From Nitrospinales bacterium (GTDB taxonomy: Bacteria; Nitrospinota; Nitrospinia; Nitrospinales; VA-1), in assembly GCA_965262115.1 (NCBI GenBank), contig OZ253496.1, positions 1,120,001 to 1,184,000 of the forward strand: a stretch of 64,000 nt of DNA. The letters are read 5' to 3'. The translations under genes and the position numbers were made by a program. The stretch's first letter is position 1. Each line of letters opens with the position of its first letter. The notes beneath the pieces are model-generated. The model had not been told where the DNA came from. It saw nothing but the letters and a program-made list of their open reading frames with translations, and ran no database searches. This document shows positions 45,068-64,000 of this stretch, piece by piece.

Positions 45068-45646
45068 TCAATCTTCTTTTTTCTGGCTGTCCTCATCCTT
45101 CGCAGCCGGCGCCGACTCAATTTTCTGACCAAAAACACTAGCGATCACTTCATTGATGACCTTGGGACCCAGAATATTATAAACCGTATTCGCCGATTTA
45201 AAATGTGGACTGGTAAAAAGACTCAACACCTTTTTACTGGTGTAACCCAGCATCATAAACTCATGCGCGTAGTTTTCCGCCACCATCCTCAAGGTATCTT
45301 CATCGGCATCTTCATCACCAGTAGGAGGCCCCGCATCCGGATCAACATCTTCCTGAATTTCGTAGACATAGATCAAGTGCCAGCCAAATTCGGTCTTGAT
45401 CGGGCCAACAACATCCCCTTCCTGAGCGGTAAATACAGCAACCTCAAAAGGCCGAACCATAGCTCCTTTTCCAAACCATCCCAAATCTCCCCCGCGTTTT
45501 TTGGATGGGCATTCGCTATACTCCTCCGCCAACTTGGTGAATTCCTCCCCCTCGTCAATCTTGACTCTCAATTCTTCAGCCAGTTCTTTAGCACCCACTA
45601 GAATATGCCGGGCTTGAACTTTTTTAACTTTTCTCTCTTTAGCCAT
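45068..45646 (-). CDS. Parvulin-type PPIase fused to a C-terminal helical domain
   Basis: ARHILV, YSECPS..RGGDLGWF, MVRPFE, TEFGWHLI, then an acidic linker and MVAENYAHEFMMLGY... Confidence 0.88.
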   Translation of the reverse strand: MAKERKVKKVQARHILVGAKELAEELRVKIDEGEEFTKLAEEYSECPSKKRGGDLGWFGKGAMVRPFEVAVFTAQEGDVVGPIKTEFGWHLIYVYEIQEDVDPDAGPPTGDEDADEDTLRMVAENYAHEFMMLGYTSKKVLSLFTSPHFKSANTVYNILGPKVINEVIASVFGQKIESAPAAKDEDSQKKED

Positions 45647-45726
45647 GATTCAATACCATAAATTATATAGAACTCGTTTCCGGAAAACCCGTTTCATCAA
45701 ATGATCTACCGCTCTCTACGTGTGCG

Positions 45727-46515
45727 TCAGTTTAACATCAACGCACAACATTTTTTATATTTCTTGCCGGACCCGCAGGGACAAGGGTCATTGGGTTTAA
45801 TTTTCCCTTCCTGCACCTTAACTCCCGGTGTACTTTTCAATAATTCCTGACCGATTTTTTTTGCATTCTTATAACGCTTCCTCAGTCTCTCATTAAAATC
45901 CGGAATCCCATGATTGATCGCAATAAGCATATCTCGGTTGGAAGATTCCAGTTTGGCCTCTTCCTTTTCTCTCAGGCGCTCATCCAAAAAATAGGTGGTG
46001 GAAAAAATCGGCGCCTGATCGGCATTGTCCAGCTCCAGCTTAAAAAAAGAAAGTTTCAAACTGCGATTATCATTGCGCGGATCAATGTCATAGGAGTCTT
46101 CTGAAAAATACGGGTCATTGTTGAAATTAAAATCGAGCATTCCCTTTTCTTGCGGAAATAATTCGAAAAAATTATAATAATTTCCCGGCTCGAATTCCAG
46201 GTAAGAGGTAGGATTTTTCTCGCCATAGGCTTTCGCTTCCACAACCCTCTGCTTGAAGAGGAGTATCAACTCATCTGGAGCGTTTTTGGAAAATCCCTTG
46301 GCGATTTGGGTTTGCACATCTGTCAAGCGTGGATGATCGGGAAGGGGATTAAAAGTTTTATTAAAATTAACCTGGAAAGCAAAAGCATTGTCCCGGTTGT
46401 CCTGGTCACGAAGACGCACCACAACATAGTTGTATTCGTAAAATGGATGGGTGTGATAAAAGTCTTCAAGGACATACGTGTTCTGGTAATTCTCTTCCTC
46501 GAACCGGTACATCAT
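45727..46515 (-). CDS. SEC-C motif protein
   Basis: C-terminal NDPCPCGSGKKYKKCC. Confidence 0.8.
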   Translation of the reverse strand: MMYRFEEENYQNTYVLEDFYHTHPFYEYNYVVVRLRDQDNRDNAFAFQVNFNKTFNPLPDHPRLTDVQTQIAKGFSKNAPDELILLFKQRVVEAKAYGEKNPTSYLEFEPGNYYNFFELFPQEKGMLDFNFNNDPYFSEDSYDIDPRNDNRSLKLSFFKLELDNADQAPIFSTTYFLDERLREKEEAKLESSNRDMLIAINHGIPDFNERLRKRYKNAKKIGQELLKSTPGVKVQEGKIKPNDPCPCGSGKKYKKCCALMLN

Positions 46516-46661
46516 TTTCGAGTTTTCACTCTCCTGCTGATTGATTTCCCAATAACCTTCGATGACAATTCCCTTTCCACTAAATATTTCAGATCACCGG
46601 ATCTCTATCTGCTCACAAACCGTATAAGTTTAAAAACCCCAAACTTTTTCAATCCCAACCA

Positions 46662-47153
46662 TCAACGAGGAAGAGGAGAATTAGAAAAACCCGGAAATTT
46701 TGTAAACACGCCCTTTTCAGTTTCCTGTTTTTCGATATCTCGAACCGCACGCACAGAATCCTTAGTGATATCTTCCTTATGATTGGCATTCGCATGTCCA
46801 TAACGGTAATAATAGATGGCAGCGGTAGCATGGGGCAGTTCATTAGCGGTCCAACTGGTGAAGCCCCCGCCGGGCGAGAAAGTCGGGCTTATGAAAACGT
46901 CCATGCGATCCATATCCAGAATGACATGGTCTTCATCATAAAGGCTTTCAGCTTCTTCCAAGTTCGGCATTCTCCAGTCCTGGTGCCCGGCAAACTTATT
47001 AATGCCCAAGCCCTTGATATAGTCCATAGCCTTATACCAATTCACCCATTTGCTGGTATCCTGAAAAGAATCGGCCTGCTTCCACATCAGCTTGGTTTCC
47101 AGGTCGGTAACCGTGCCGTCTCCATTATCTACAAATCGTTTTTTTAATTCCAC
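46662..47153 (-). CDS. DUF1566/Lcl C-terminal domain protein
   Basis: RFVDNGDGTVTD.ETKLMW...GHQDWRMP..EE...SVRAVR. Confidence 0.88.
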   Translation of the reverse strand: MELKKRFVDNGDGTVTDLETKLMWKQADSFQDTSKWVNWYKAMDYIKGLGINKFAGHQDWRMPNLEEAESLYDEDHVILDMDRMDVFISPTFSPGGGFTSWTANELPHATAAIYYYRYGHANANHKEDITKDSVRAVRDIEKQETEKGVFTKFPGFSNSPLPR

Positions 47154-47188
47154 GTTTTACTCTCCAATGTTGCTCTTTAATTTCAGTC

Positions 47189-47644
47189 CTAGTCTTCCTG
47201 CTTTTCAATATCGCGGACCAGCCTGGAAGCCCCTCTCGACACGCGAAAAATGTCATCATAAATGGCAACTCCTTTGCGGAAATTCAGGCGCACACCTTGT
47301 ATATTATGTCGCACATCGCTGGTCCAGCACAGAAACCCGCACCCTGGCTCAAACAAGCCGGACAGATAAATCGCCTGCCCCATATTATCGGAATTTTTCT
47401 GTGTCTTATCGAAGAGGCTTTTGGCTTCGCTTGCCGTAGGAAGCCTCCAATTGGAAAAGCCTGCAAACCGCTTTCGGTTCAAACTTTCCGCAAACTCTTT
47501 GACCTGGCGCTGGGCCATCCATTTCCCCGCCATTTGCCAGGTATCTTTTTTAAGCCATACGAGGCGCTTGGCGCCGTCAATCACCGTGTCGCTGTCTCCT
47601 GCCGCAAATCGCCCACCCACTTGCCCCGAGCCCTGTTCACCCAT
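47189..47644 (-). CDS. DUF1566/Lcl domain protein
   Basis: TVID...LVW...GFSNWRLPTASE...RLVR. Confidence 0.85.
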   Translation of the reverse strand: MGEQGSGQVGGRFAAGDSDTVIDGAKRLVWLKKDTWQMAGKWMAQRQVKEFAESLNRKRFAGFSNWRLPTASEAKSLFDKTQKNSDNMGQAIYLSGLFEPGCGFLCWTSDVRHNIQGVRLNFRKGVAIYDDIFRVSRGASRLVRDIEKQED

Positions 47645-47649
47645 GACCT

Positions 47650-48534
47650 TTATGAGTCACCTTCCTGATTCCGGACTGCACGGACACCGTGACTACGCAA
47701 ACCCATCTGGTGCCATTTATAGTCTCCATTATAATAATGGAAACTAATGGCCAATCCTTTATCCGACTTATTCAATGTTTTGGTCCAGCAGGTCAAACCA
47801 CAGCCCGCAGGAAAACCTTTAGTTAAAAATGCCGTGTCACCATAATTGTCCGTAACAGGATTAGAAGCGTCATAAATCGCCTGCGCTTCCTTCCGAGTTG
47901 GCATGCGCCAATCCTTATAACCCGCAAACTGTGTCCGGTTTAGTTGGATTAGGTAGGTCTTGGCTTCGTCCCAACTCACCCACTTATCCAATTCCATATA
48001 GGAGTCCGCCGACTTCCACATCAGGCCTGTCTTGTGGTCAGTAATGGTGCCGTCTTTATGCAGTTCAATGCGGACAAAATCAGGGTCCTCTTCTTCCTGA
48101 ATATTGGCTCGAACCAAGCGCACAGCACTGGGGAAACCATCGTTTTCTTTAGCCAGCCAGAATTCGTAATCGGATCGGTAGTCATAGGCCATGGCGGCCT
48201 TGGCGCCACGGGTTTGGCTGGTCCAAGTCGAGAATCCGCACCCAGAAGTAAAAACAGGATCGATATGAATTTCGCAGCCTTCTACATCTGTATTGCTGGC
48301 TGATCGATGAAAAAGGTATTTGGCTTCTGAAGCGGAGGGAATGCGCCAGTTGTTATACCCGGCGAATTTTTCCTCATTCATTGTTCGAGCTAACTCCTGG
48401 CTTTCATGCCAAGTGATCAAACGCCCCAACCTGACCCAAGTATCCTCTTTCATCCACATGAGGTTGTGCTTCGGATCCGTAACAGTATCATCTCCGTTAT
48501 CCAAATACTGCATTTCCACTTTGGCTTCCGTCAT
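47650..48534 (-). CDS. Tandem double DUF1566/Lcl domain protein
   Basis: Two TD...LMW...WR(I/M)P...VR(L/A)VR units. Confidence 0.88.
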   Translation of the reverse strand: MTEAKVEMQYLDNGDDTVTDPKHNLMWMKEDTWVRLGRLITWHESQELARTMNEEKFAGYNNWRIPSASEAKYLFHRSASNTDVEGCEIHIDPVFTSGCGFSTWTSQTRGAKAAMAYDYRSDYEFWLAKENDGFPSAVRLVRANIQEEEDPDFVRIELHKDGTITDHKTGLMWKSADSYMELDKWVSWDEAKTYLIQLNRTQFAGYKDWRMPTRKEAQAIYDASNPVTDNYGDTAFLTKGFPAGCGLTCWTKTLNKSDKGLAISFHYYNGDYKWHQMGLRSHGVRAVRNQEGDS

Positions 48535-48538
48535 AACT

Positions 48539-49060
48539 TTATTTTCTGCGTGTGGGGGACTGGTGTCTCATGACCTTATCTTTTCTACAGATACGAACCG
48601 AGCCAAAGCTATACTCTTCGACACTGACAACCTTGCCTTCGCTATAGTCAAACCTCGGTCTGCGGGTGGATGTATCCCCCGCAATCCAGGCGGTTTTAAA
48701 CGCACCTTCTGGAAACACTGGATCAAGATGAAGGATCACCCCGCTCTTCCCTGGGTTTTCGCAGGACTCATCAAAAAGTGACGAGACTTCATCAATACTA
48801 GGCAGTCGCCAGTCATCAAACCCACCAATCTTTCTAAGATTCTTCCTATCGGCAAACTCCACCGCTTCATGCCAGTTGAAAAACTTACCCTTGTCCTGCC
48901 AGGAATCTTTTTTCAACCAGTACAGACGGGTTTTATTATCAAAAATAACATCACGGCCTTTCTCCACAAACCTTTTAGGTTTGTCATCCTGCTTGACCGG
49001 AGCCTGTTCCGTCTGCTTGATCGGAGACAGTTCCGAGTTTTTGGGAAGTTCTTCTGTCAT
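48539..49060 (-). CDS. DUF1566/Lcl domain protein
   Basis: IFDNKTRLYW...GFDDWRLPSIDE...SVRICR. Confidence 0.85.
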   Translation of the reverse strand: MTEELPKNSELSPIKQTEQAPVKQDDKPKRFVEKGRDVIFDNKTRLYWLKKDSWQDKGKFFNWHEAVEFADRKNLRKIGGFDDWRLPSIDEVSSLFDESCENPGKSGVILHLDPVFPEGAFKTAWIAGDTSTRRPRFDYSEGKVVSVEEYSFGSVRICRKDKVMRHQSPTRRK

Positions 49061-49120: not shown

Positions 49121-49342
49121 TTAATTATAGCCAGTATATCCTATTTCTACGCTGTCTTCATCGACATTGACAATGACCGGAACGATATACTGGTCATTGG
49201 AATAACCCAATAATTGCTTCAAACCCTGTGGGTCTTTATCAACATTTACGTAAACAAAAGACCTGTGTTGCTTTTTAAAGTCCGCCAGGGCTTTCTGCGT
49301 GTGGGGACAGTCATCCTTGCCAAAAATCATATAATGGTTCAT
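49121..49342 (-). CDS. Glutaredoxin-like protein (Uxx-star-like family, CPHT)
   Basis: IFGKDDCPHT...YVNV...VPVIV...IGY. Confidence 0.78.
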   Translation of the reverse strand: MNHYMIFGKDDCPHTQKALADFKKQHRSFVYVNVDKDPQGLKQLLGYSNDQYIVPVIVNVDEDSVEIGYTGYN

Positions 49343-49380: not shown

Positions 49381-49992
49381 TTAACGTTCGAATGTCTTCG
49401 TGTCCTTGCGCCACTCAGGTTCCCAATCCTCCTGAACCACATCACGGGTCACCCGACAATGAGAATATTCGTTGTCCTTATGCTCCCACATATCGTTACC
49501 CGTCACATAACTGAATTTTTGCGCATACTGTTGGTAGTCCGGCTTTTCTTCATAGGTCCAGGTATTGTGCCCTCCTGCCGGCTCAAACAGATCTGAAATA
49601 TGGGTCTCGGCCCCATCCTTATCATGATTCGACTGGGTAAACGAAAAAAGGCTTTTAGCCTCTTCACCGCTGGGCAACCTCCAATCATCAAAGCCGGCGA
49701 ACTTTTTGTCATTCAACATTTCGCAATAATCATGGGCCTCAAACCAGGTGATTCCATAACTGTACTCTTTGTATGAATCATCCTTTTTCCACATCAGGTT
49801 GGAATAGGTATCGCTGATGGTGCCATCGCCGTTATCGACGAAATTAGGAACTTCCTCCTCCACCACAGCAACATCTTCTTCGTCCTCATCGCCCCATTCA
49901 TCCTCGCCAACCCATTCAGTCTCCGGCTCATTTTCTGAAGTCTCCGGATCTACAGCATCATCAAATTCGGTTGGGTCATCATTTTCAGACAT
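49381..49992 (-). CDS. DUF1566/Lcl domain protein with acidic N-terminal extension
   Basis: About 50 D/E-rich residues, then NFVDNGDGTISD...LMW...DWRLP. Confidence 0.87.
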   Translation of the reverse strand: MSENDDPTEFDDAVDPETSENEPETEWVGEDEWGDEDEEDVAVVEEEVPNFVDNGDGTISDTYSNLMWKKDDSYKEYSYGITWFEAHDYCEMLNDKKFAGFDDWRLPSGEEAKSLFSFTQSNHDKDGAETHISDLFEPAGGHNTWTYEEKPDYQQYAQKFSYVTGNDMWEHKDNEYSHCRVTRDVVQEDWEPEWRKDTKTFER

Positions 49993-50023: not shown

Positions 50024-50467
50024 TCAATCCAGGTCCCTGACCATACGCACCGAAGTGCCAGTGGTCGACACCGACTGGTCCACACAAACCTCTCTCATAT
50101 TCGGGAAATAGCTTTTCCACGCATAAGAATCGTACCGGGTTTCAGAAGTCCACACACAGGTTTCACCGCCAGCCTGATAATTGGAAACCCGCCGTGCCGG
50201 CTTTTTGGGTAAGTTCAGGAACACATCCCGGTAATCATTTTGGTTACGAAATAACGAGCGCACCTCACTTTTAGTCGGTAGCCTCCAGTCGTTATAACCC
50301 AAATATTTTTGTTCATTGCTGGCCTTCACATAAGCATGGCCTTCATCCCAGTTGAGCCACTTTCCCAATTCCTGCCGGGAATCTCTCAGCACCCACATCA
50401 AATCATTATCTGGATCTTCGACCGTACCATTATCATTCTTGACCCAACCACATTTTGATTCCGCCAC
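50024..50467 (-). CDS. DUF1566/Lcl domain protein
   Basis: NDNGTVED...LMW...GYNDWRLPTKSE...SVRMVR. Confidence 0.85.
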   Translation of the reverse strand: MAESKCGWVKNDNGTVEDPDNDLMWVLRDSRQELGKWLNWDEGHAYVKASNEQKYLGYNDWRLPTKSEVRSLFRNQNDYRDVFLNLPKKPARRVSNYQAGGETCVWTSETRYDSYAWKSYFPNMREVCVDQSVSTTGTSVRMVRDLD

Positions 50468-50814: not shown

Positions 50815-51309
50815 CTATCGCCAACCGCCCCCCTGAGTGATTTTATCTCGGACTTCCGGCACATGGGCGATTTTGGCTTTTGAGTTGTCAAATTCACCGC
50901 GCACGAGACGGACACTGGAATTGAGGATATCATCGACCTCCTTATGTCCGCCGGCCCCACTGCTGAAAGAATAAACATAGGCCGTGACCTTGCCCCGGGT
51001 ATTGCTGGTCCAGGTATCGTGACCACAACCTTCGGTGAATACCGAATCGATATGTACGAACATGTCGTACTTGTCTTTCAAGGTTTTCTCTATGTCATAA
51101 AGGGAGTGCGCCTCTTTCTTATTGGGAAACCGCCAGTCCTGATAACCGGCAAAAGACCCCTCATTTTGTTTTCCCAAATATTTTAAAGCCGCTGTGTAGC
51201 TGACGAACTTCTGGAGGTCCAGATAGGAGTCGTTTTTCTTCCACATCAACTGGGTCAGATTGTCGGTGACCGTGCTATCCCCATTATCCACAAACCTGTT
51301 TTCGCTCAT
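50815..51309 (-). CDS. DUF1566/Lcl domain protein
   Basis: RFVDNGDSTVTD.LTQLMW...GYQDWRFP...SVRLVR. Confidence 0.88.
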   Translation of the reverse strand: MSENRFVDNGDSTVTDNLTQLMWKKNDSYLDLQKFVSYTAALKYLGKQNEGSFAGYQDWRFPNKKEAHSLYDIEKTLKDKYDMFVHIDSVFTEGCGHDTWTSNTRGKVTAYVYSFSSGAGGHKEVDDILNSSVRLVRGEFDNSKAKIAHVPEVRDKITQGGGWR

Positions 51310-51367: not shown

Positions 51368-51402
51368 CAAAAAAAAGCCGGGGGGCAAAAAAGCCCCCCG
51401 GC
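51368..51402 (-). terminator. Rho-independent terminator
   Basis: GCCGGGGGGC-loop-GCCCCCCGGC, followed on the minus strand by a T-run. Confidence 0.8.
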
Positions 51403-51421: not shown

Positions 51422-51937
51422 TTAGCGGTTTGCTTCAGCTGTTGCGCCACCACCACCATCAGCATCCATACCACCCCTTACGCTGAAGAGACCGCGCTCG
51501 GTACCTTCAGGCTGACCCATACCCGGCTCAATATATGTAGACGGCGTTACATGGTCCAGATGGTAATCAGGTTGATAGGTCTTTTGAGAACCAGGATCCA
51601 TTTTCCAGTCATGGTGCGCTTGGGCTTCTCGCTTTTGACAGTTCAACTGGATATCTCCGGGACCTTTGTTGGCAAAAGTGGATTTCGGCTGCAGAGCATG
51701 ACTGAAAAATCCTCCTGGAGGCAGTGTCCGATCAAAATTCTTGTTCCATGAATATCCAATCGGCCCAACATTGATGTGTACCGTTGTTGCTTTGTCTTCA
51801 CTCAGGTTGACAAGATTCCAACCCGCATTCAAACAAACGCTGGATTTCCCAGCAGGGATGGTGGAAACACCTGCACTTGCAACGGCAACAGAAAACACAA
51901 AAAATACTGCGAATAAAACTAAAACGGTCTTTCTCAT
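51422..51937 (-). CDS. Secreted hypothetical protein
   Basis: Strong RBS; Sec signal MRKTVLVLF...AVASA; one Cys pair; has its own terminator. Confidence 0.75.
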   Translation of the reverse strand: MRKTVLVLFAVFFVFSVAVASAGVSTIPAGKSSVCLNAGWNLVNLSEDKATTVHINVGPIGYSWNKNFDRTLPPGGFFSHALQPKSTFANKGPGDIQLNCQKREAQAHHDWKMDPGSQKTYQPDYHLDHVTPSTYIEPGMGQPEGTERGLFSVRGGMDADGGGGATAEANR

Positions 51938-52277: not shown

Positions 52278-52673
52278 TTAAACTCTGAACTTCAAGGACG
52301 TCAGTTTTATCAGGTCCGTAGAGTTTCTGAGGGCTTTTTCACCGTCCTCGGAAATGTCATTGACCACCAACTGCAAACTGCGCAGGCTGGGTAAATTTTT
52401 CGACGTCGCAAGATAGGTGGCTCCCACATCACTGATACTGTTTGAAGCCAGATTGAGAGTTCTCAGATTGGTAAACATTGTTGATTCGGCAATGGCCTTG
52501 ACCCCTTCATCACCAATACTGTTCTGCGAAAGATCCAAAGCCCGGATGCCCTTCATAGTTTCATGCTGAGCCAACTCTTTCGCACCCACCTCTCTCAAGA
52601 ATTGCGCCTTCAAGCTCAGCACTTGCCCGTCCTTGCTCAGCCGGTCCCGGATCAACTCATTCAAATTTGCCAT
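52278..52673 (-). CDS. Leucine-rich repeat protein (RNI-like)
   Basis: LDLSQNSIGDEGVKAIA and LNLASNSISDVGATYLA repeats. Confidence 0.88.
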   Translation of the reverse strand: MANLNELIRDRLSKDGQVLSLKAQFLREVGAKELAQHETMKGIRALDLSQNSIGDEGVKAIAESTMFTNLRTLNLASNSISDVGATYLATSKNLPSLRSLQLVVNDISEDGEKALRNSTDLIKLTSLKFRV

Positions 52674-52685: not shown

Positions 52686-53507
52686 CTACCCGGTACCCGG
52701 GATTTCCTTAGCTACAAATCCGTATTCATCGTAGATGCTATAACCTTCCTGAAGCATCTTTTTCCCATATTTGACCATCAGGTTGGCCTGGCTGTGACTA
52801 GGATCAATATCGATAGTTTTCTTCAAATACTTCAATCCCTTTTTGATATCCTTGACTTCGTCGCCATAATTTTCAATTTGCCGGGCTTTATCAAACAAAT
52901 CGGAGGCCCACTTGTAATAAACCGTAGCAATTTGTTGGGGCGCATTCTGGCTGATATAGTCGATAATTTCCTCATCTGCCTTCAACTTCGGAATATCCTG
53001 GACAGCCGCCTCAAACTCGCGCAGGGGGGTAGCATAATCGTCATCCGTCACCGAAGAAATCTGTGCACCGGCCCTATGCTGGGAATGCAGACCCACAGAA
53101 CTTTTAACCACTGTGGACTGAATCCCCGACATCAACTGGTGGTAATAAAGGTTGCCGATGCCGAAATGGATGATGGCGCTGAATTCCTGGTTTACGTCCA
53201 GCAACAGGGCCTGCTCAAAAGATTCCTGGGCATCGTCCATCTGCCCCAGTTCCGAGAGGGCTTCCCCCATATTGTAATGATGGACACAGTTATCCGGCTC
53301 TTCCTCAATCTGGAGCTTGAACTCCTGAATCTGGGCTTCAAGGTCAAACTCAGCCTCTTCCTCATCGTCAAACTCCGAAACTTCAGCCTCTTCAGAGTCT
53401 TCAGCCGTAAGAGACTGGTCAGCCTCAGGCTGGGAAGGATCTTCAGCATTTTCCAGCGGTTGCCCGGCTTCTTCCTCCGATTCCGCTTCTTTTTCGTCTT
53501 CAATCAT
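52686..53507 (-). CDS. TPR protein with acidic N-terminus
   Basis: D/E-rich first ~55 aa; HHYNMGEALSELGQMDDAQESFEQAL TPR. Confidence 0.82.
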   Translation of the reverse strand: MIEDEKEAESEEEAGQPLENAEDPSQPEADQSLTAEDSEEAEVSEFDDEEEAEFDLEAQIQEFKLQIEEEPDNCVHHYNMGEALSELGQMDDAQESFEQALLLDVNQEFSAIIHFGIGNLYYHQLMSGIQSTVVKSSVGLHSQHRAGAQISSVTDDDYATPLREFEAAVQDIPKLKADEEIIDYISQNAPQQIATVYYKWASDLFDKARQIENYGDEVKDIKKGLKYLKKTIDIDPSHSQANLMVKYGKKMLQEGYSIYDEYGFVAKEIPGTG

Positions 53508-53509: not shown

Positions 53510-54529
53510 TCAGACACAATAAGGGGGAATCCCTTCTTCCGCCCATTCCCCCGCTTTGCCATTGTTTATGTTCTGACGATTTTTTATCGCGCCTGAAACC
53601 ATCTTTTTCCGAGACACTTCTATCTGATTCATAATTTCATCCGGCGAATCGTTTAAGAGATTGCCAAACTTGGGCTGACACTTCAGATTGCCCACATCAC
53701 AACAAGGAGTTATCTCCCCGGTTTGCTGGACAGTGACAATCTCGATGGTACCACGAGGAATGGTGCATTCCAGATGGTTAATATCCCGGGGGAAAGGCTG
53801 GGAATTCATAGCCCGCTCGCCATTTTTATCGACATAAAACCCCGGGATCATATTCAGCCCAAAAGTAAAGTTGTCCGTACAAATATAATTTTCAACGCCT
53901 TCCATATGCTTTAAAAATACGCCTTCATCACATTCCGGATTATCCCGCAAAAGACTTTCAAGCTTCGTGCGATAAGCCCCAAGTAAAGACATGACGGAAT
54001 CAAATTTCTTTTCCCGTTCTCCAAAAAACGTGATCAAAATTTCAATCTGGCTCAACAAGTCCGACACTTTTTCAAAGATCATGTTGACGATCAATTCGTC
54101 CTGCAATCCCAGAATCTCGATAAGAAGTGGTTTTTGCCGCTCCTCCCAAACGGTTGGATACAACGTAAAGTCCACCCGTCCGGACAATTTCATGATCTCT
54201 ACCAATCTTAACCAACGCTGAGATTTTGCTGAGTTGATGTCCAGATTGGTGTGGATGCGTACATTTGACGTCAGCTTCCTGAAGATTTTAAATATTTCAA
54301 CGATGTGAGGGTTTTGTGAAGGCTCCCCGCCGGTCAGATTAATTTCCCTTTTGGCCAATTCACGGAACACCTCCATCTGGAGAATTTTATCCACCATGAC
54401 CTGAGCCTGCTCCGGCATTAAATGCCAATCGCTCTTGGCAATCTTGCTAAGCGGTTCGTAGACATGACAATACTGGCACTCATCTCGCACATAGCGATTA
54501 CAATTGGCTTCGGCAAAAATATTTATCAT
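53510..54529 (-). CDS. Radical SAM protein with CX7CX2C motif and Twitch/SPASM-like C-terminus
   Basis: CNRYVRDECQYC, LTGGEP, HTN, GEITPCCD...FGNL. Confidence 0.82.
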   Translation of the reverse strand: MINIFAEANCNRYVRDECQYCHVYEPLSKIAKSDWHLMPEQAQVMVDKILQMEVFRELAKREINLTGGEPSQNPHIVEIFKIFRKLTSNVRIHTNLDINSAKSQRWLRLVEIMKLSGRVDFTLYPTVWEERQKPLLIEILGLQDELIVNMIFEKVSDLLSQIEILITFFGEREKKFDSVMSLLGAYRTKLESLLRDNPECDEGVFLKHMEGVENYICTDNFTFGLNMIPGFYVDKNGERAMNSQPFPRDINHLECTIPRGTIEIVTVQQTGEITPCCDVGNLKCQPKFGNLLNDSPDEIMNQIEVSRKKMVSGAIKNRQNINNGKAGEWAEEGIPPYCV

Positions 54530-54576: not shown

Positions 54577-55209
54577 CTATTTAGCAGGTTGCCCCAAAAC
54601 AGTCCGTACAGGTCTGAGGGTAGATAAAGAAAGACTGGGTCCACCCCTCATGCTGGGATAGGTTTTGCCCCCGATGTAATTAAAACCCCAAGCGTATTTT
54701 TCCTTATAACGCTCGCTGGACCAGAAACAACAACTTGAATAACCGAAGATCGGGTCAATATGAAGGACATTTTCGGTCCAATAATATTTCCAGGTAACAT
54801 TCTTTTTCTCTTCGTAGAGAGATTTCAGTTCTTCCCGGGTCGGCAGTCGCCAGTCCGAAAAACCCGCAAAACCTTCTCGATTGAATTTTTCCATGAAGTT
54901 CTGAGCATCGTCCCAGTTGATCCAAACCTTTTTTTCCTGATAGATATCAATTTGCTTCCACATCAGCTTATTTTCAAGGTCTGTAATGGTCCCATTTTTA
55001 TTATCCCGAAATCGGGGATCATTGGAAGGCTTTAGGGGCGGCTTTTCTTCGGTGAGAGAAAGAATCTGGCCGCCAAATATCTCATCGGTGCCTTTACCGT
55101 TCGCATTCGCCTGCGTGGAACACAGCCCACACACTGCCAGCAGCAAAAAAGCAACCTGCAGGGGTTGGATCAAAAGGCGAAAAAAACGAATCATGTCTTT
55201 TGGAATCAT
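54577..55209 (-). CDS. Exported DUF1566/Lcl domain protein
   Basis: Signal-like N-terminus (..TQANA); RFRDNKNGTITD...LMW...DWRLPTREEL. Confidence 0.87.
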   Translation of the reverse strand: MIPKDMIRFFRLLIQPLQVAFLLLAVCGLCSTQANANGKGTDEIFGGQILSLTEEKPPLKPSNDPRFRDNKNGTITDLENKLMWKQIDIYQEKKVWINWDDAQNFMEKFNREGFAGFSDWRLPTREELKSLYEEKKNVTWKYYWTENVLHIDPIFGYSSCCFWSSERYKEKYAWGFNYIGGKTYPSMRGGPSLSLSTLRPVRTVLGQPAK

Positions 55210-55246: not shown

Positions 55247-56245
55247 CTACTCTTCCTGTGGTGCCCAGTCTGGCTCCCAGGACAGGCAAATTCCGGAGGG
55301 ATTTAAAAATTGCCCCGGATCCTTACCGACAATGCCCCATTTGGAAACAAAGTTCAGGTCCGGGTCAAACTTCTGGATTCTCTGGTTCAAAGTATCGACG
55401 ACGAACACGTATCCATAAGGATCTTCCACCAGCGAAACGGGACAGTTGAACTGACCGTCGCGCTTGCCCGCCTCGCCAAGAATGTCGAGAGAGTGTCCCT
55501 CCCGATCAAAAAGCTGTAACCGGTTCTGACTTTTTTCGGCCACTATGATGGTGCCATCTCTTCGCACGGCTATCCCGGTGGGAAAATTCAACCGGCCTGG
55601 CTCGAATCCATACTCACCAAACTTGGACAGGTATTGCCCGTCCTCATTAAAAATCTGAATGCGCTGGTTGTCCCGGTCGGCCACATAAATATTGCCTTCC
55701 CGATCCAATGTCAGACCAACGGGAAATTTCATGAATCCGTCGAAGTTCCCGGCAAATCCAAAACTGATAATAAAATTGCCATCGCTGTCATACCGTTTGA
55801 CACAATGGTTGGAAGTGTCCGCCACCAGGATGGTCCCGGTGGGTTCCGCGACAATTTCCTCCGGCATATAAAACTTTTCCTGTCCCCAGCCTTCACTACC
55901 AAATTCAAGAAAGAAATCTCCATCCGGGTCAAACTTTTGTAGCCGATGACAACCGGTATCGACAACCCAAATATAACCCTCGTTATCCACGGCCACTCCA
56001 CTTGGAGTCTTAAATTCTCCGGGGAGATAAGGAGGGCGGGTGCCGCCGGATTTACCAAAACACATCAGAAATTTCCCATTGCCGTCGAATTTCTGGATCC
56101 GGTCATTGCCCGAATCCGCTATCCATACATAAAGCTGACTATGATCAACCTGAGGACTCTCTTCAGGTAGAGTCTCTTCGACACCGGCTACTTCCAGCGC
56201 CTGAGACGGAGCGTCCTCGCTGTTTTCCGTATTATCTTCCACCAA
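55247..56245 (-). CDS. NHL-repeat beta-propeller protein with acidic N-terminus
   Basis: About six repeats of F..P.G..D..G..(W/Y)VAD..N.RIQKFD. Confidence 0.92.
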   Translation of the reverse strand: MVEDNTENSEDAPSQALEVAGVEETLPEESPQVDHSQLYVWIADSGNDRIQKFDGNGKFLMCFGKSGGTRPPYLPGEFKTPSGVAVDNEGYIWVVDTGCHRLQKFDPDGDFFLEFGSEGWGQEKFYMPEEIVAEPTGTILVADTSNHCVKRYDSDGNFIISFGFAGNFDGFMKFPVGLTLDREGNIYVADRDNQRIQIFNEDGQYLSKFGEYGFEPGRLNFPTGIAVRRDGTIIVAEKSQNRLQLFDREGHSLDILGEAGKRDGQFNCPVSLVEDPYGYVFVVDTLNQRIQKFDPDLNFVSKWGIVGKDPGQFLNPSGICLSWEPDWAPQEE

Positions 56246-56504: not shown

Positions 56505-57140
56505 TTATCTTATCAGGAACCCTTTCACATCCAGAATCTGGTATTCGAAATTACAGGTTTTTTGAAGTTCGTCGAGCCTTTCATTCCAGTTTTGCTTGAA
56601 ATTATCCAGGCTTTCAGACTTGGGTTTCTTTTTCATCAGGCCGACCTCACGATATAGCGGCTTCACCATATTCTTGAAGACCAGTTGAATGATATTTCGA
56701 AGGTTAAGAATGCATTGTTTGGTCACCTCTTCCCGAGTCACGCCATCGACCTTTTCAAGAAGGCGCAGGAACGACTGGATCGTGGTGATCTGAACCGTGT
56801 AGCTTTCAGCCAACCTGTGATCGTATTTCAGACCGCAGTCAATGTAAGCTGGCATGAGATACATACCAACATGGTGATCAAATTTGACAGCAAGAGTGAT
56901 CAGCTTTTGCAGATAATCGACTTCACGCAAATCCTCCTCTTCTTCTTCACCTTCAGCCAGTTCTTTAGTGGCTTTTTCTTTTTCCTTTTGAAGCTCGAGT
57001 TTGATCTTTTCCAACTCGCTCAAATCAGAAAGATGATCGACCTCTTTCTCTTCAGCAGTGTCTTCCGACGAGCCTTCCGGCCCGGCATTTTCCTTAGTTT
57101 CAGTATCCTGTTCGCTCAACGCAAGTCTCCTTCCTGACAA
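56505..57140 (-). CDS. Hypothetical helical protein with acidic/coiled-coil N-terminus
   Basis: Long ORF with normal composition; true start possibly the TTG near 57119 after AGGAG. Confidence 0.7.
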   Translation of the reverse strand: MSGRRLALSEQDTETKENAGPEGSSEDTAEEKEVDHLSDLSELEKIKLELQKEKEKATKELAEGEEEEEDLREVDYLQKLITLAVKFDHHVGMYLMPAYIDCGLKYDHRLAESYTVQITTIQSFLRLLEKVDGVTREEVTKQCILNLRNIIQLVFKNMVKPLYREVGLMKKKPKSESLDNFKQNWNERLDELQKTCNFEYQILDVKGFLIR

Positions 57141-57322: not shown

Positions 57323-57529
57323 GGAGAACTTTGCATAACCCAAGATTACCCCTACGGGGCATGAAGTTTAAGGAAAAATATCACATCTTCGTCACCTTGT
57401 TCCTCAGAATGACAAAATGGCCCAGTATTGTCATGCTGAGCTAGTTATATTTGACCTTTGAATTCTTGCCCCGTAGGGGTTCTCGAAGCATCTCGGTTCT
57501 TCGATTTTTCGACTTATGCAAAGGTCTCC
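57323..57529. mobile_element. MITE with IS5-like terminal inverted repeats (copy 2)
   Basis: GGAGAACTTTGCATAA ... TTATGCAAAGGTCTCC; homologous to 20399-20569 with one extra ~38-bp module. Confidence 0.75.
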
Positions 57530-57864
57530 TAATAAAGGGGCCGCAGGGGCAGATAGACAGCTTTATTTGGGCTAACAACAGATCAGCAAAACGAGCCCTT
57601 GGCCAATTCCCTCCCACTGGAAGCGGGCCACTAACCGCGGGGCAAAAGGGGGTAAGAAAAAATGGCGGAGCATGAACATTTTGATCTGAGAAAAACGGTT
57701 TCTCTCCAGACAAAACTGTTACCGGTTACCTCTGCGGCTAGCAGTTGACAGGTCTGGCCTGTGGGTATACTCTTTTTCTATACAAAACCTGATTTATATA
57801 AGGTTAACCGTTTCCACCGGGAGAGGAATACCCCCATGTTGGAATATATAAGAGTTTGAATATT

Positions 57865-59661: not shown

Positions 59662-59666
59662 CCGGC

Positions 59667-59739: not shown

Positions 59740-59832
59740 TGGTTGACAGGGTGTGAGGGATGACCTAGAATTTAGAACATCACCAATCAAATCAAACCGA
59801 ATTTAGAACCTTTTAGAGAGAGCGATCCTATT

Positions 59833-60969
59833 ATGGGCGAAGCAGGCAAACCGACAGACTGGATCACGATGAAAATCGATCCTGATATTTTTGAAGAGTT
59901 AGGGGTCCGCGACCCTGAAGAAACCAAGCGGGAAATGGCAATCACCAAAAAAACCCGTCAGGTCACTAAGGAGTTGAAAGCTGAACCCGACAATGTGGAT
60001 CTTCAGTTAGAACTGGCCACCTTGATGATAGATGGTGCGAATTATGAAGAAGCCATCAAACAACTCTTCACCATTCGCAACAAAGCCCCCAAAAACGCCC
60101 GGGTTTACAAACTGCTCGGTACCGCATACGTGCTGTTCAATCATGAAGAGGAAGCCCTGATTGAATTGAACCGGGCCTGCGAACTGGACCCCACCGATGT
60201 AGAAAACTACTTCAATCTCGGGGGTCTCTATTTGCTCAGGGACATGTTCCCAAGCGCTGCGGATGCGTTTGAAAAAGTCATTGAACTCGATCCTACCGAC
60301 ACAACAGCCTATGCCAACCTTGCGGCGGCTTATGACATGCTCAAATTTTATGACAAGGAAATCATCGCCCTCAGAAAAGTGTTGATGTTCAAACCGGAAG
60401 ACAAGGAACTGCGCTCAGCACTGTCCAACGCTTATTTTCATGCTGGACGTTATGAGGACGCCATTGATGCCGCCCTGTGCGTGGTCGATATTGACGAAAA
60501 AGACCCGCAAGGCTATTGCAACCTGGGCAGTTGCTATTCCGTGCGTAATATGATCGATGATGCCATCGCAGCTTTCAAAAAAGCCAGCGAGCTGGCACCG
60601 GACTATTCCCTGCCGCACACCAATCTGGGGACCCTTTATGCCAATATGGGTCGGCCGGAAACCGCTATCAAGTCGTTCAAAACAGCGGTGACCCTGAACT
60701 CGGCGGACGCAGGAGCCTGGATGAACCTGTATACCTGCTATAAAGATGTCGGGTTGATGGAAGACTCGCAGGCGGCTTACCAGAAGTATGAAGCGTTGAT
60801 GGAAGGACCCGCGCTTGCTTCGACCGGAGCAACGGAAGGAGAGAACCCCTCAAATATCCCCGGCGGTGTTTCCCAAACCAGCAAATATGCCGGAGGTGGA
60901 GACATGGACGGAAACCAGCCTGGCATGGAATCGTTGGCGGATGCGGATGCAGATGCAGATTCCCGATAG
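59833..60969 (+). CDS. Multi-TPR protein
   Basis: About eight consecutive TPR units (YFNLGGLY, YANLAAAY, YCNLGSCY, HTNLGTLY). Confidence 0.9.
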   Translation: MGEAGKPTDWITMKIDPDIFEELGVRDPEETKREMAITKKTRQVTKELKAEPDNVDLQLELATLMIDGANYEEAIKQLFTIRNKAPKNARVYKLLGTAYVLFNHEEEALIELNRACELDPTDVENYFNLGGLYLLRDMFPSAADAFEKVIELDPTDTTAYANLAAAYDMLKFYDKEIIALRKVLMFKPEDKELRSALSNAYFHAGRYEDAIDAALCVVDIDEKDPQGYCNLGSCYSVRNMIDDAIAAFKKASELAPDYSLPHTNLGTLYANMGRPETAIKSFKTAVTLNSADAGAWMNLYTCYKDVGLMEDSQAAYQKYEALMEGPALASTGATEGENPSNIPGGVSQTSKYAGGGDMDGNQPGMESLADADADADSR

Positions 60970-60988
60970 GCTCCCTTGAAATCCTATC

Positions 60989-62380
60989 ATGACCCATCCT
61001 CCCCAAAATCTGGTTGCGCTTGGTGATTTCAAGCCTTCCGATACTTGGCAGACCCATGTCAATGCCATTTTCTATGGCATCAAGGGTCCCGAAATCCACA
61101 ACCATTTTCAAACTTATGTGAGCTTGGACTACCGTCTGGCTCACGCGCTCGCCAATGATTTTTATGCCAAAGCCCGAGGCGGCGAGCGTCCTGAAAATGA
61201 TGTCTGGGTGGTGCAGGAATGGGGAGTGGGCAATGGCAACCTAGCCGCGTGTTTTCTCAGCCACCTGCGTGCAATTGACAGCGAGAATGAAGTCTATCCT
61301 TTTATCTATTACATTCTTTGCGATGAGTCCGAAGAAATTTTAAAAGGCGTGTGGGCCAACTTCCGCTTACAGGAACACGCCGGTAAATTTTCCACGGTTC
61401 GCGCCCACGCCGAACACCTGGATTGTTTCCGGCCTCACTCCGTAGCAAAGATCATCTCCAACGAAATTTGGGACGACCTGGCAACCAAAGTTCTGCTGAA
61501 GCATCAGGGTCTTTTTTATGAGGAATACCTGTGCCCTTTCCTGAACCCGGAAGCACTCCCTGCCGAAGCAGACGCTTTCGTTGAACAATTTGAAAACAGG
61601 GATCTGGAAAAACTCGCCCAGCTTACCAACTTTCTCAACACCATTCACTGGGAACGGGATTTTCAAAGGGTGGACCTGGATGACTGGCCCTTTGCGGAAA
61701 TCTTGAAGGCTCACGCCGAAGAATTTAAAGATGAAATTCCCATGCCCATTAATACCGGAGCTTTTTCCGCCATTGAAAAAGCAAAAGAACTTTTAGGCCC
61801 TAACAATTTTGGTTACACCAGCTTTGACTATGGCATGAAAGAAATTCAGGATCTCAATCAGGAAGGACGGCACTATTTTAATTTATACGGTGGGCAATAC
61901 ACGTTCATGGTGAACTTTCCCCTGCTTGAAAATATTGGCCGGTCTTTAGGATTTACTGAAATCACCCGGGAATACCAGAATCAGTTTGTCGAAAAAGACC
62001 TCGGATCAGCAGTCGTCAGTCTGGTGGATCTGGTGCAAAACCATCCGCAAGCAGTCAACATGGCTCCGTGGGACAGAGACATTCTAATGCTCGGAACACT
62101 CAATGCTCTCAATACCGTTTATCGAAGTCCCTACTCTGGAAAACTCAACTACCCTGCACTTGAAGGAACTCCCAAAAAACAAAGAAAGCAAATCGCCCAA
62201 CTGGCTAAAAACCTTAGTAGCCGGGGTGTTCCTGATACTGTAGCCTATGTCACCCGGGAGGAAGTTCTGGCTGCCTTGAAACCTCTTAGAAACCTGGGCT
62301 ACAGGGAAAAAGATATTCAGTCCGCTTTTCAATCCCCTCCACCTCCTGTTTCATTCGTTCACATTCAATTCAGATCTTAA
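60989..62380 (+). CDS. SAM-dependent methyltransferase, MidA/NDUFAF7-like
   Basis: EWGVGNGNLA motif I; ISNEIWDDL, FDYG and TFMVNF match the family pattern. Confidence 0.78.
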   Translation: MTHPPQNLVALGDFKPSDTWQTHVNAIFYGIKGPEIHNHFQTYVSLDYRLAHALANDFYAKARGGERPENDVWVVQEWGVGNGNLAACFLSHLRAIDSENEVYPFIYYILCDESEEILKGVWANFRLQEHAGKFSTVRAHAEHLDCFRPHSVAKIISNEIWDDLATKVLLKHQGLFYEEYLCPFLNPEALPAEADAFVEQFENRDLEKLAQLTNFLNTIHWERDFQRVDLDDWPFAEILKAHAEEFKDEIPMPINTGAFSAIEKAKELLGPNNFGYTSFDYGMKEIQDLNQEGRHYFNLYGGQYTFMVNFPLLENIGRSLGFTEITREYQNQFVEKDLGSAVVSLVDLVQNHPQAVNMAPWDRDILMLGTLNALNTVYRSPYSGKLNYPALEGTPKKQRKQIAQLAKNLSSRGVPDTVAYVTREEVLAALKPLRNLGYREKDIQSAFQSPPPPVSFVHIQFRS

Positions 62381-62437
62381 AATCCCGTTTCCTCACAGGA
62401 AAACAGGGAAAACCTGATAACATAGTAGTTCTCTGAA

Positions 62438-62556
62438 GTCATTGCGAGGAGGCGAAGAGGACGAAGCCGTGATATCTCCTCATTAATTTTCGTGCCCCGC
62501 AGGGGTAAATCCAGAAAGAATGGATCGCCGCGCCGCTTATAGCGACTCGCGATGAC
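62438..62556. repeat. GTCATTGCGAG...CTCGCGATGAC palindromic repeat with a nested 39-bp module
   Basis: Near-perfect 11-bp terminal inverted repeat; internal module related to 25130-25168. Confidence 0.7.
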
Positions 62557-62603
62557 AGTCAGCGTTCTGAAACCGTTAAAAAAACTCCGGAGTTTTTTGA
62601 CCG

Positions 62604-63611
62604 ATGCTCAGTATTTTTGTCGAAACCAGTTGCAACCGCTACAACAGGGACGAATGCGAGTTCTGCCATGTGTATGAACCGCTGATGGCGGACCCGGTCT
62701 CTGAATGGCACCTGACTTTGGAGCAAGCCCGGGTAATGGCAGAAAAAATCCAGCGTGTCGAGGTGCTTAACACCTTGGCCCAGCAGGAGATCAACCTGAC
62801 CGGCGGTGAGGCCTCGCAGAACCCCGACATTATCGAGATTTGTAAGGTGTTCCAAACCCTCACACCGCATGTTTGCCTGCACACCAATCTCGACATACTC
62901 TCAGAAACATCCAAACGCTGGCAAAGACTGCTGGGGATCATGGAGCTCGGCGGCCGGGTCGATATCACGCTTTATCCCACTGCATGGGAGAAGTCGCAGA
63001 AACATTTTCTTGGGGCTCTATTGGAAAAACAGAACAACCTGATCATCAATGTCGTTTATGAAAGTCTGGAGCATTTAAAACTTCAGATCGACCTTCTGCT
63101 CGATTTTTTTAAGGAACAGGAACATGTCACGCAACTGCTCGAAACCTACTCAATAAAAGTGGAGACCCTTTTAATCGAACACCCCAACTGCGATGAGAAA
63201 CTGTTCACCACGCATTTTGGAGATACCGAAGCCTTTGCCCGCAAACCGGAACTCACTGTAGGATTGAGTTTGCTACCGGCGTTCAATATTGATGACAACG
63301 GCCAGCGGTCTATGGCATCGATGGCTTTTCCCAGAGACCAATACCTCATTGGCTGTCCCGCCGCACGAGGCTCGATAGACATCATGACCATTCAGCAAAA
63401 TGGTGAAATGACGCCCTGTTGTGATGTTGGCAATTTGAAATGCAAACCCGCGTTCGGCAACCTGTTAATGGATTCGCCGGAAGAAATCATGGAAAAAATG
63501 CAAGTGTCCATGAAGGTACTGGCATCAGGAATCCGCAAAAATCAGGAAAACCAGACAACCGGGAAAGCCGGGCATCTGGTCGAAGAAGGAATCCCCCCTT
63601 ACTGTCACTGA
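62604..63611 (+). CDS. Radical SAM protein with CX7CX2C motif (paralog of 53510-54529)
   Basis: CNRYNRDECEFC, LTGGEA, HTNLD, GEMTPCCDVGNLKC, EEGIPPYC. Confidence 0.82.
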   Translation: MLSIFVETSCNRYNRDECEFCHVYEPLMADPVSEWHLTLEQARVMAEKIQRVEVLNTLAQQEINLTGGEASQNPDIIEICKVFQTLTPHVCLHTNLDILSETSKRWQRLLGIMELGGRVDITLYPTAWEKSQKHFLGALLEKQNNLIINVVYESLEHLKLQIDLLLDFFKEQEHVTQLLETYSIKVETLLIEHPNCDEKLFTTHFGDTEAFARKPELTVGLSLLPAFNIDDNGQRSMASMAFPRDQYLIGCPAARGSIDIMTIQQNGEMTPCCDVGNLKCKPAFGNLLMDSPEEIMEKMQVSMKVLASGIRKNQENQTTGKAGHLVEEGIPPYCH

Positions 63612-63658
63612 CCGGCGCACGGACGGGGGGGATTTAAAACTACTTATGCTATTGCCCA

Positions 63659-64000
63659 TCAAGCTGAAGGAAGTTCTCCAGGAGGCACTTCTTCCTCTTC
63701 TTCTTCGAGGAAATCGTCGTCCTCCTCCTCACCGATCAACAGATTTTCATCATCGACCTTGAGTTCTTCAAACTCTTCTTCCTCTTCTGCTTCTTTCGGA
63801 TAGGGAAGTTCGTTCCAGACCACGATGCGAGAATTGCCCCGGTCACAGATAAAAAGCCTGAATTTGGGTTGCGGCTCCTCTTCGGCAGATTCGCCTTCGG
63901 CTGCTACGAGAGCCGTTTCCCCATTATCATTATCGTCATCATCATCCGCCATGGGAATGCCACGAAATTCTTCCTCCTCCTCGTCCTCATCGATCAACAA
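63659..64000 (-). CDS. C-terminus of an NHL-like protein with long acidic tracts (5' end outside window)
   Basis: LFICDRGNSRIVVWNELP blade flanked by poly-D/E segments. Confidence 0.7.
   Translation of the reverse strand: MLIDEDEEEEEFRGIPMADDDDDNDNGETALVAAEGESAEEEPQPKFRLFICDRGNSRIVVWNELPYPKEAEEEEEFEELKVDDENLLIGEEEDDDFLEEEEEEVPPGELPSA

Follow-up and report, generated by a model that had tools for sequence, protein, structure and literature searches.

A fixed, order-wide set of small Lcl_C (C-type-lectin-fold) proteins in Nitrospinales and its densest gene cluster

In a 64,000-nt stretch of a Nitrospinales genome (contig OZ253496.1, positions 1,120,001 to 1,184,000; the window), we studied a gene cluster at 45068..64000 that encodes small proteins with the Lcl_C (DUF1566) domain. 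Some 22 small C-type-lectin (CLec)-fold proteins form a fixed set in this genome, and their genes lie most densely in this cluster. This Lcl repertoire is real, order-wide and undescribed, and the radical S-adenosylmethionine (SAM) and methyltransferase enzymes encoded beside it are bystanders. Each paralogue may recognise one different constant partner, most likely a protein rather than a sugar, and such adaptors would help to fold, assemble or position lineage-specific cell machinery. An earlier reading of the letters of the window (the original prediction) had regarded the cluster as a candidate undescribed system.

Results

Eight minus-strand genes between 46662 and 55209 (Lcl1 to Lcl8) passed the PF07603 cut-off in a Pfam scan, with scores of 56-139 bits against a gathering cut-off of 34.9, and one of them encodes two domains. 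The nine domains are 25-43% identical in pairs (mean 30%), with only Trp, Asp, Arg, Pro and Glu residues as a common core. The export of each protein was judged by an 11-residue hydropathy test of its N-terminus, in place of SignalP. Lcl8 (54577-55209) alone among the eight had a hydrophobic N-terminus, with a value of 2.9 versus −0.4 to 0.9 in the other seven. These results bear out the original prediction of eight DUF1566 genes with nine domains on one strand, seven of them lacking a signal peptide. The neighbours that it listed (parvulin, SEC-C, glutaredoxin, leucine-rich repeat (LRR), tetratricopeptide repeat (TPR), NHL, three radical SAM and MidA-like genes) are likewise present, with a weak match for the methyltransferase. 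Its claim that the block holds no internal stop or frameshift also stands, as all open reading frames of the cluster are full length when compared with orthologues.

The genome as a whole carries 23 Lcl_C domains in 22 genes, 14 of which are dispersed outside the cluster. The cluster domains are as distant from the dispersed ones (mean identity 30%) as from one another. Presence of 8 of the 22 genes within 8.6 kb was seen in none of 20,000 random placements. A signal-like N-terminus was found in 5/22 Lcl genes by hydropathy, and a sixth scored 2.0 only when an upstream start was taken.

We then examined how the set is distributed. A search of the phylum gave Lcl_C matches in all 77 genomes of the order, with 21-28 matches in 51/51 genomes that are at least 90% complete, and 0-17 matches in 15 genomes of other orders. 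The nitrite oxidisers of this phylum belong to the class Nitrospinia only (PMC10839748). Among 251 genomes of Nitrospirota, 118 had no Lcl_C domain and the others had 1-18 matches, so the set is not a general trait of nitrite oxidisers. Orthology was determined in four genomes, G009 (same genus, 1.7 Mb) and G025, G027 and G035 (three other families), with every match taken. One clearly best partner per genome was found for 23/23 domains, the weakest case being 118 versus 92 bits, and retention was complete even in the 1.7-Mb genome. Extra domains numbered 0, 2, 5 and 3 in G009, G025, G027 and G035, respectively.

A maximum-likelihood tree, built by a quick search from all 155 rows, gave five-member clades for 22/23 orthologue groups at a Shimodaira-Hasegawa-like approximate likelihood ratio (SH-aLRT) of at least 97, with Lcl3b unresolved. 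Of the 23 groups, 21 radiate star-like from a node of support 92, which also includes one short outgroup fragment. The copies from the sister order form a separate clade in this tree, and score best against an exported paralogue. The set is thus fixed and vertically inherited, and kept one-to-one across Nitrospinales; its members would descend from an exported ancestor that was duplicated in a burst when the order arose. The original prediction of ancient, non-redundant and mostly leaderless paralogues was supported by the one-to-one orthology in all four genomes across four families. Scattering or variable copy number of the paralogues, which it had named as a point that would speak against it, was observed in one half: 14 of the 22 genes are dispersed, yet copy number is steady and orthology one-to-one.

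In 4/4 genomes, two of the dispersed exported Lcl genes are followed immediately by a cytochrome c or alternative-NxrC gene. The nxrABC operon of this genome lies at 1404512-1410462 of its contig C1, 220 kb from the cluster. At C1 748460-750339, two related small exported Gly/Ser/Gln-rich proteins are encoded just before a dispersed Lcl gene, and in three other genomes one of the two has stayed next to that gene.

The structure of Lcl1, modelled from a 132-row alignment, had a predicted local distance difference test (pLDDT) score of 94. Its best structural match was the C-terminal domain of Lcl from Legionella (8q4e; Z 11.6, root-mean-square deviation 4.0, 119 aligned residues, 20% identity), followed by Bd2740, TvpA, PvdO and Mtd; a Foldseek search with the model gave no match at E < 0.001. 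For the tandem Lcl3, an AlphaFold2 model from 22 sequences (pLDDT 54) was too poor to reveal the packing of domains. No Cys or His is invariant among the 132 aligned domains, where the near-invariant columns are T, D, W, G, R, P, E and F only, and a common catalytic site of the formylglycine-generating enzyme (FGE) or EgtB type is therefore absent. None of the 22 Lcl genes carries a fused output, kinase, transporter or DNA-binding domain, nor is one encoded in the block. Collagen repeats were present in 0/22 Lcl genes, and family NF046116 reached 15 bits at best against a cut-off of 500.

The C-terminal hairpin face is the part of the CLec fold that diversity-generating retroelements (DGRs) rewrite. 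In the Lcl set this face (residues 99-136) has the lowest likeness between paralogues, 0.20-0.22. Within orthologue groups, in contrast, family-variable columns of residues 99-136 were 0.63 identical, versus 0.46 elsewhere (p 2e-7). Low likeness between paralogues combined with high conservation within orthologues shows that each paralogue has a private, stable surface, its own conserved putative binding face. The charge of the face differs strongly, Lcl2 and Lcl4 being basic and Lcl5 acidic. The eight cluster genes gave ratios of nonsynonymous to synonymous divergence (dN/dS) of 0.04-0.44 over 40 pairs from five close relatives, a sign of purifying selection; dN/dS was among the checks that the original prediction had proposed. 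The synonymous divergence (dS) of Lcl8 to all five relatives was 0.81-0.95, above the 0.11-0.55 of neighbouring genes, and the Lcl8 allele of this genome was therefore likely replaced by recombination.

Whether a DGR acts on these genes was judged from several signs. Targets of DGRs carry a C-terminal variable repeat (PMC5758913). A hypervariable C-terminal face was not found here, the face being more conserved within orthologues than the rest. No intact DGR reverse transcriptase was detected in the genome: two RVT_1 matches, both with internal stops, lie near genome position 50 kb, 1.1 Mb away. A blastn search for template copies of the 22 genes gave only two short matches outside Lcl genes, with 12-17% of mismatches at A and neither at the 3′ variable region. 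An excess of NNY codons (0.60 versus 0.51) shrank to 0.60 versus 0.55 (p 0.056) when helices were set aside, and four-fold sites showed no such excess (p 0.25). We rejected the codon footprint of a DGR after these controls.

Gene order was compared with 10 distant genomes, in which the order secC-Lcl1-6-glutaredoxin-hypSP-LRR-TPR-Lcl8-NHL-hyp211 is kept; hypSP and hyp211 are orphan genes described below. As exceptions, Lcl7 is in place in 9/10 genomes and Lcl2 and Lcl3 are swapped in G035. The plus-strand, divergent arm consists of a B12-binding radical SAM gene, a TPR gene (59833-60969), the methyltransferase gene and the second radical SAM/SPASM gene. The B12 radical SAM, TPR and methyltransferase genes remain adjacent in 7/8 distant genomes that reach them, and 43/44 genomes of the order encode the MidA-like methyltransferase, whose gene in G035 lies away from the block. 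The SPASM radical SAM family, however, was found in 25/44 Nitrospinales genomes and not in 19/44, several of the latter being single-contig, and it lies inside the minus-strand Lcl block in 1/10 distant genomes. The SPASM enzymes are dispensable and not core. As a separate observation, the CX7CX2C motif of the SPASM pair is unusual and its C-terminal end is conserved; the pair is patchy and mobile within the order, and passes no NCBIfam family.

The synteny that the original prediction had proposed to test was thus seen for the minus-strand run, but this order is not above background and the SPASM genes are mostly not part of it. Its notion of a self-contained system matured by co-encoded enzymes is not supported, given the 25/44 distribution of SPASM genes, the location of 14/22 Lcl genes elsewhere and a background order that is as conserved. 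Of the intact 19-kb cluster, genes and intactness were borne out, but a single self-contained unit was not: the block occupies both strands, comprises several transcription units and runs past the window, with an NHL gene at 63659-65278 followed by a cytochrome c/EB_dh gene at 65459-67057. The block is a composite in which an Lcl operon and a monocistronic orphan stand together with scaffold genes, accessory enzymes and an older hyp211/alternative-NxrC module; that these parts have stayed in one place would be due largely to the slow rearrangement of Nitrospinales genomes.

The monocistronic orphan, hypSP, was present in 72/77 genomes of the order and 0/15 outside it. Neither this gene nor hyp211 had been named in the original prediction. 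It was not found in 201 Nitrospirota genomes by a search without positive control, and had no relatives at E < 0.05 in Pfam or among PDB sequences. The protein has invariant Cys35 and Cys100 and a conserved His/Asp/Glu tail; by eye, its spacing may be cupin-like or Ig-like. Its gene has its own promoter-like site (52148-52120), a strong terminator-like hairpin, and a strong ribosome site that is identical in 12/12 relative loci printed. The dS of hypSP was 1.2-1.5 to two of the five close relatives. In genome G037, a YfbK-type vWA lipoprotein (L179:5819-7795, minus strand) has a copy of the C-terminal 50 residues of hypSP (70% over 46 aa) within its N-terminal linker, which suggests, from this one genome only, that the tail may be a portable element for binding or anchoring.

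Expression was assessed from the transcriptome of N. gracilis Nb-211 (Table S1 of Bayer et al. 2024, PMC11428151), in which genes are listed in order. Mapping was by gene order from serA (2917508913), not by sequence identity. The annotated anchors glutaredoxin (20), RanGAP-like LRR (25), TPR (26), propeller (28), TPR (31), MidA methyltransferase (32) and cytochrome c (34) all occupy the very places expected from the SPASM-less cluster order, and we therefore assigned the 'hypothetical' rows by position. Exponential means for Lcl1-8 were 585, 401, 492, 417, 522, 116, 588 and 273 transcripts per million (TPM), and the hyp211 position had 1,309 TPM. All cluster genes were expressed, at roughly 100-1,300 TPM apart from hypSP. 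Gene 2917508924, at the hypSP position, reached 29,140 TPM, compared with 15,439 for nxrA and about 1,400 for EF-Tu. Its range was 27,400-31,200 TPM in exponential and 8,100-10,600 TPM in stationary phase, and its exponential value is the highest among about 250 N. gracilis rows, which does not prove it the top of the genome. Transcription of hypSP is thus likely about twice that of nxrA, and its product would be an abundant periplasmic or envelope structural protein and a possible client of the Lcl adaptors.

Stationary/exponential ratios were 0.36-0.72 for Lcl1-6, 0.02 for Lcl7 and Lcl8, 0.05 for NHL and 0.03 for the methyltransferase. This spread of 0.02-0.72 across the cluster indicates several transcription units. 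The co-expression that the original prediction had suggested checking is therefore partial: Lcl1-6 fall alike, but Lcl7, Lcl8, NHL and the methyltransferase fall far more steeply.

The small LRR protein of the block belongs to an order-specific family with 23 genes in this genome. Matches to this query were found in 44/44 Nitrospinales and 0/5 genomes of other orders, and of 18 G027 members recovered from the 30 best matches, 17 were reciprocal best matches, so that the family is mostly one-to-one between families of the order. It seems that several binding scaffolds were expanded and fixed in the ancestor of Nitrospinales. The other orphan, hyp211, was found in 74/77 genomes of the order and 1/15 outside, and the ESM Atlas gave no usable match for it. 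In G043, a genome of another order, a hyp211-like domain is fused to a parvulin (L181:7-834, plus strand), two genes from a B12 radical SAM gene of the cluster's family; this fusion ties both ends of the minus-strand block to protein folding. Three Nitrospirota metagenome-assembled genomes (MAGs) have hyp211 (41%) before a porin and an EB_dh/NxrC-like protein (L175-L177, ~10000-18300), and the two long loci among these also have a homologue of the exported 157-aa protein encoded past the window and five cytochrome c genes. Since these MAGs have 0, 0 and 1 Lcl_C matches, the hyp211/alternative-NxrC module predates the Lcl set and does not depend on it.

Features of the cluster and neighbouring genes

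The features are listed in Table 1. Lcl1-5 are tightly spaced, at 4-60 bp, and acidic tails are enriched in the block (3/21 versus 33/2,150 genes, at a post hoc threshold). The parvulin is 76-84% identical across families; a word-index search matched its C-terminal extension to close relatives only, and the ESM Atlas gave no usable match. Word-index searches with hyp211, the parvulin tail and hypSP yielded close relatives alone among the best 120 of 960 and of 440. Among printed orthologues of the SEC-C protein (45727-46515), 4 have an N-terminal Cys motif as well as the SEC-C tail and 3 have neither; in this genus SEC-C alone is kept. The glutaredoxin-like gene has no in-frame TGA for selenocysteine, and CxxT occurs here and in 12/12 printed orthologues. 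Identity of the plus-strand TPR protein as MamA was rejected as a generic TPR match (168 bits, below the cut-off of 200).

Table 1. Features of the cluster in window coordinates.
Feature	Position	Strand	Basis and remarks
Parvulin (peptidyl-prolyl isomerase), conserved C-terminal helical extension of no known family	45068..45646	-	Pfam Rotamase over cut-off
Protein of no known role, C-terminal SEC-C motif, lost in some orthologues	45727..46515	-	Pfam
Lcl1, leaderless Lcl_C	46662..47153	-	PF07603 70.5 bits; model pLDDT 94
Lcl2, leaderless Lcl_C, basic	47189..47644	-	Pfam, orthology
Lcl3, leaderless tandem two-domain Lcl_C	47650..48534	-	Pfam
Lcl4, leaderless Lcl_C, basic face and tail	48539..49060	-	Pfam
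Glutaredoxin-like, UXX-star family 1 by score, Cys (CxxT)	49121..49342	-	NF041114 74 bits, cut-off 72
Lcl5, leaderless Lcl_C, acidic N-terminal tail; start taken at 49992	49381..49992	-	Pfam
Lcl6, leaderless Lcl_C	50024..50467	-	Pfam
Lcl7, leaderless Lcl_C, separately regulated; outside cluster in G035	50815..51309	-	Pfam, expression
Intrinsic-terminator-like hairpin, 10 G-C pairs and T run, closing hypSP gene	51377..51402	-	Sequence
hypSP, exported orphan (predicted), 171 aa, signal peptide, beta-rich domain	51422..51937	-	Order-specific; no Pfam/PDB family
Small RanGAP/RNI-type LRR protein	52278..52673	-	Pfam
TPR protein, acidic N-terminal tail	52686..53507	-	Pfam
Radical SAM/SPASM, CX7CX2C motif, accessory insertion	53510..54529	-	Pfam
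Lcl8, sole exported Lcl_C of cluster (predicted)	54577..55209	-	Pfam, hydropathy
NHL beta-propeller, leaderless, acidic N-terminal tail	55247..56245	-	Pfam
hyp211, orphan protein, TTG start near 57119	56505..57119	-	Sequence comparison
B12-binding radical SAM, one of five close paralogues in genome	57856..59661	+	Pfam
TPR protein, own promoter-like site 59743-59771	59833..60969	+	Pfam
MidA-like SAM-dependent methyltransferase	60989..62380	+	Weak Methyltransf_28 match, E 8e-5, under cut-off
Second radical SAM/SPASM, CX7CX2C, accessory	62604..63611	+	Pfam
Second acidic NHL protein, C-terminus (gene 63659-65278)	63659..64000	-	Pfam

The cytochrome c/EB_dh gene that follows the second NHL gene beyond the window is of the alternative-NxrC type, and an exported 157-aa protein is encoded after it. 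No Rfam family matched in 38000-64000. Inverted repeats at 57312-57540 were discarded as part of the system, being a dispersed genomic repeat with 160 blastn matches in the genome; this palindromic element spans 57300-57540, and a related short copy lies at 40063-40080. A 21-nt 'inverted repeat' at 57217/59728 was likewise rejected as a regulon, as it is a stretch shared upstream of two −35 boxes with only 2 genomic copies, weakly kept in distant relatives. Outside the cluster, the zinc-ribbon protein encoded at 41081-41782 (plus strand) bears a long acidic tail; its gene is syntenic in distant genomes, and the N. gracilis counterpart is expressed at about 660 TPM.

Discussion

We tentatively propose, at somewhat less than an even chance, that the fixed Lcl set consists of dedicated partner-binding adaptors for lineage-specific machinery, the partners being predicted. 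The proposal is based on the private faces, the lack of catalytic residues and output domains, the foldase context and the housekeeping-level expression. The minus-strand neighbours of the Lcl genes are foldases and repeat scaffolds, and the adaptors may co-operate with the neighbouring parvulin, glutaredoxin-like, TPR, LRR and NHL proteins. By hydropathy, 17 adaptors would be cytoplasmic and 5 exported.

Several points weigh against this proposal. The sole characterised member of the family binds glycosaminoglycans (PMC11162425), by analogy with which sugar or polyanion ligands are just as possible for the Lcl paralogues. The cytoplasmic location rests on the hydropathy test, and NxrB is leaderless yet exported in this lineage, for which hitch-hiking was proposed (PMC3578206). 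Most dispersed leaderless Lcl genes adjoin ordinary housekeeping genes. The parvulin fusion was seen in a single genome, the expression figures come from one species by indirect gene mapping, and a search of sequencing runs listed no RNA run for the window. Gene order lends little help: neighbours of the 14 dispersed Lcl genes were unmoved in 46/49, 41/49 and 34/42 cases in three other families, and also in 50/53, while the unrelated serA stays adjacent in 8/9 genomes that reach it. Because these are equally stable, linkage is weak evidence of joint function.

The paralogues could instead, though we regard it as unlikely, be non-redundant subunits of one intracellular hetero-oligomer, be it a shell, a lattice or a filament, with genes arranged in the manner of microcompartment shell sets: a main locus, satellite loci and a member with tandem domains. 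The tight spacing of Lcl1-5 with near-equal transcripts (401-585 TPM), the fused pair in Lcl3, full retention in the 1.7-Mb genome, the acidic tails and the trimer formed by the Legionella domain (PMC11162425) all agree with it. Export of 5/22 proteins and a conserved private surface that is the classic ligand face argue against it, as do the 50-fold drop of Lcl7 and Lcl8 in stationary phase, compared with 1.4-3-fold for Lcl1-6, and an abundance of each Lcl transcript about 30 times lower than that of nxrA, less than one would expect of a structural shell.

It is similarly unlikely that the set is a fixed array in which each paralogue senses or carries one small ligand, such as a metabolite, a glycan (for instance glycogen or a peptidoglycan fragment) or a polyanion. 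The CLec fold, the very different charges of the private conserved faces and the binding of sulphated glycans by Lcl (PMC11162425) would suit such an array, but output, kinase, transporter and DNA-binding domains are missing from the 22 genes and the block, and 22 indispensable sensors would be many for an obligate chemolithoautotroph. Somewhat more doubtful is a new structure dating from the origin of the order, in which the very abundant exported hypSP would form a lattice in the periplasm or envelope and so support periplasmic nitrite oxidation. It would be joined, with the same small chance, by an obligatory hetero-oligomeric cytoplasmic scaffold of the 17 cytoplasmic Lcl paralogues, about 23 LRR proteins and the acidic TPR and NHL proteins, all subunits being indispensable even in the 1.7-Mb genome.

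It is improbable that the leaderless paralogues are exported without a signal peptide, by hitch-hiking on twin-arginine translocation (Tat) or by a one-step system, and act in the periplasm or at the surface with the abundant orphan. Other DUF1566 proteins are surface proteins (PMC11162425, PMC5758913), the sister-order clade beside the Nitrospinales radiation scores best against an exported paralogue, and NxrB was proposed to hitch-hike (PMC3578206). The raised synonymous divergence typical of allele exchange, however, is seen in the exported Lcl8 and hypSP, whereas the leaderless genes track their neighbours, and the operon partners (small parvulin, glutaredoxin, leaderless NHL and TPR) look cytoplasmic.

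The pathway first envisaged, in which the radical SAM enzymes and the methyltransferase modify the Lcl proteins as one system, is very unlikely. The stable B12 radical SAM-TPR-methyltransferase adjacency and the order-wide methyltransferase favour it, but no SPASM pair was found in 19/44 genomes, whereas all have the Lcl set. In addition, the plus-strand arm has come away from the block in G035, four close paralogues of the B12 enzyme are encoded elsewhere and background gene order is equally conserved. An active or frozen repertoire of DGR targets has next to no chance and is refuted as an active DGR in this genome, an ancient DGR origin keeping a slight probability: DUF1566 is a class of DGR targets, half of which are short and single-domain (PMC5758913), and the star-like paralogues differ most on the face that DGRs rewrite, but only a stop-interrupted reverse transcriptase fragment lies 1.1 Mb away, no template-like copy of the 22 genes was seen, the face is conserved within orthologues and the NNY excess fades under controls.

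In the ocean, nitrate is produced mainly by Nitrospinales, yet two scaffold families of this order, with about 45 genes together, are conserved one-to-one throughout it while their role is undescribed. Apparently one of the strongest Nitrospinales transcripts encodes a protein of no known family; hypSP, being single-copy, order-specific and likely abundant, would mark marine nitrite oxidisers in metatranscriptomes and metaproteomes.

The original prediction that no pathway of such composition had been described agrees with the literature searched. No description of a Nitrospina Lcl array was found in open full-text literature, though subscription papers and supplements (e.g. the annotation table of PMC3578206) may mention one; a full-text search found no paper on Nitrospinales and leucine-rich repeats, and DUF1566 and lectin have 0 occurrences in the main text of PMC10839748 and PMC13768755. 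The alternative NxrC modules of Nitrospina (PMC3578206) resemble the cytochrome c/EB_dh gene just past the window and its exported neighbour. In three Nitrospirota MAGs, hyp211 lies before EB_dh and a multihaem cluster, but these MAGs nearly or wholly lack Lcl_C.

FGE-sulfatase-fold proteins (PvdO, CarF, EgtB, PorK/GldK) are alike at the level of the fold (Z 7-8.5), but the Lcl domain is half the size, has no invariant Cys or His and matches no FGE-sulfatase Pfam family. Microcompartment shell sets comprise many non-redundant paralogues of one small fold, with main and satellite loci and a tandem member. The Lcl set differs from these in its fold and in the export of some members, and a Pfam scan of 24 proteins found no BMC shell domain. 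The DGR targets of the CLec2 type and category 'd' (PMC5758913), such as TvpA and Mtd (2y3c, 1yu0), share the CLec fold (Z 9.0 and 8.4) and are likewise diverse on the C-terminal face, but in the Lcl set the diversity lies between fixed paralogues, without reverse transcriptase or template. The closest relative is the C-terminal domain of Legionella pneumophila Lcl (8q4e, PMC11162425), with the same profile domain and fold and a common Trp-Arg-x-Pro...Glu core. The Legionella protein is one secreted, collagen-stalked trimeric adhesin, whereas Nitrospinales have 22 stand-alone paralogues, 17 of them leaderless, across the order. The fold of a surface adhesin serving as a fixed intracellular repertoire would be the reverse of its known use.

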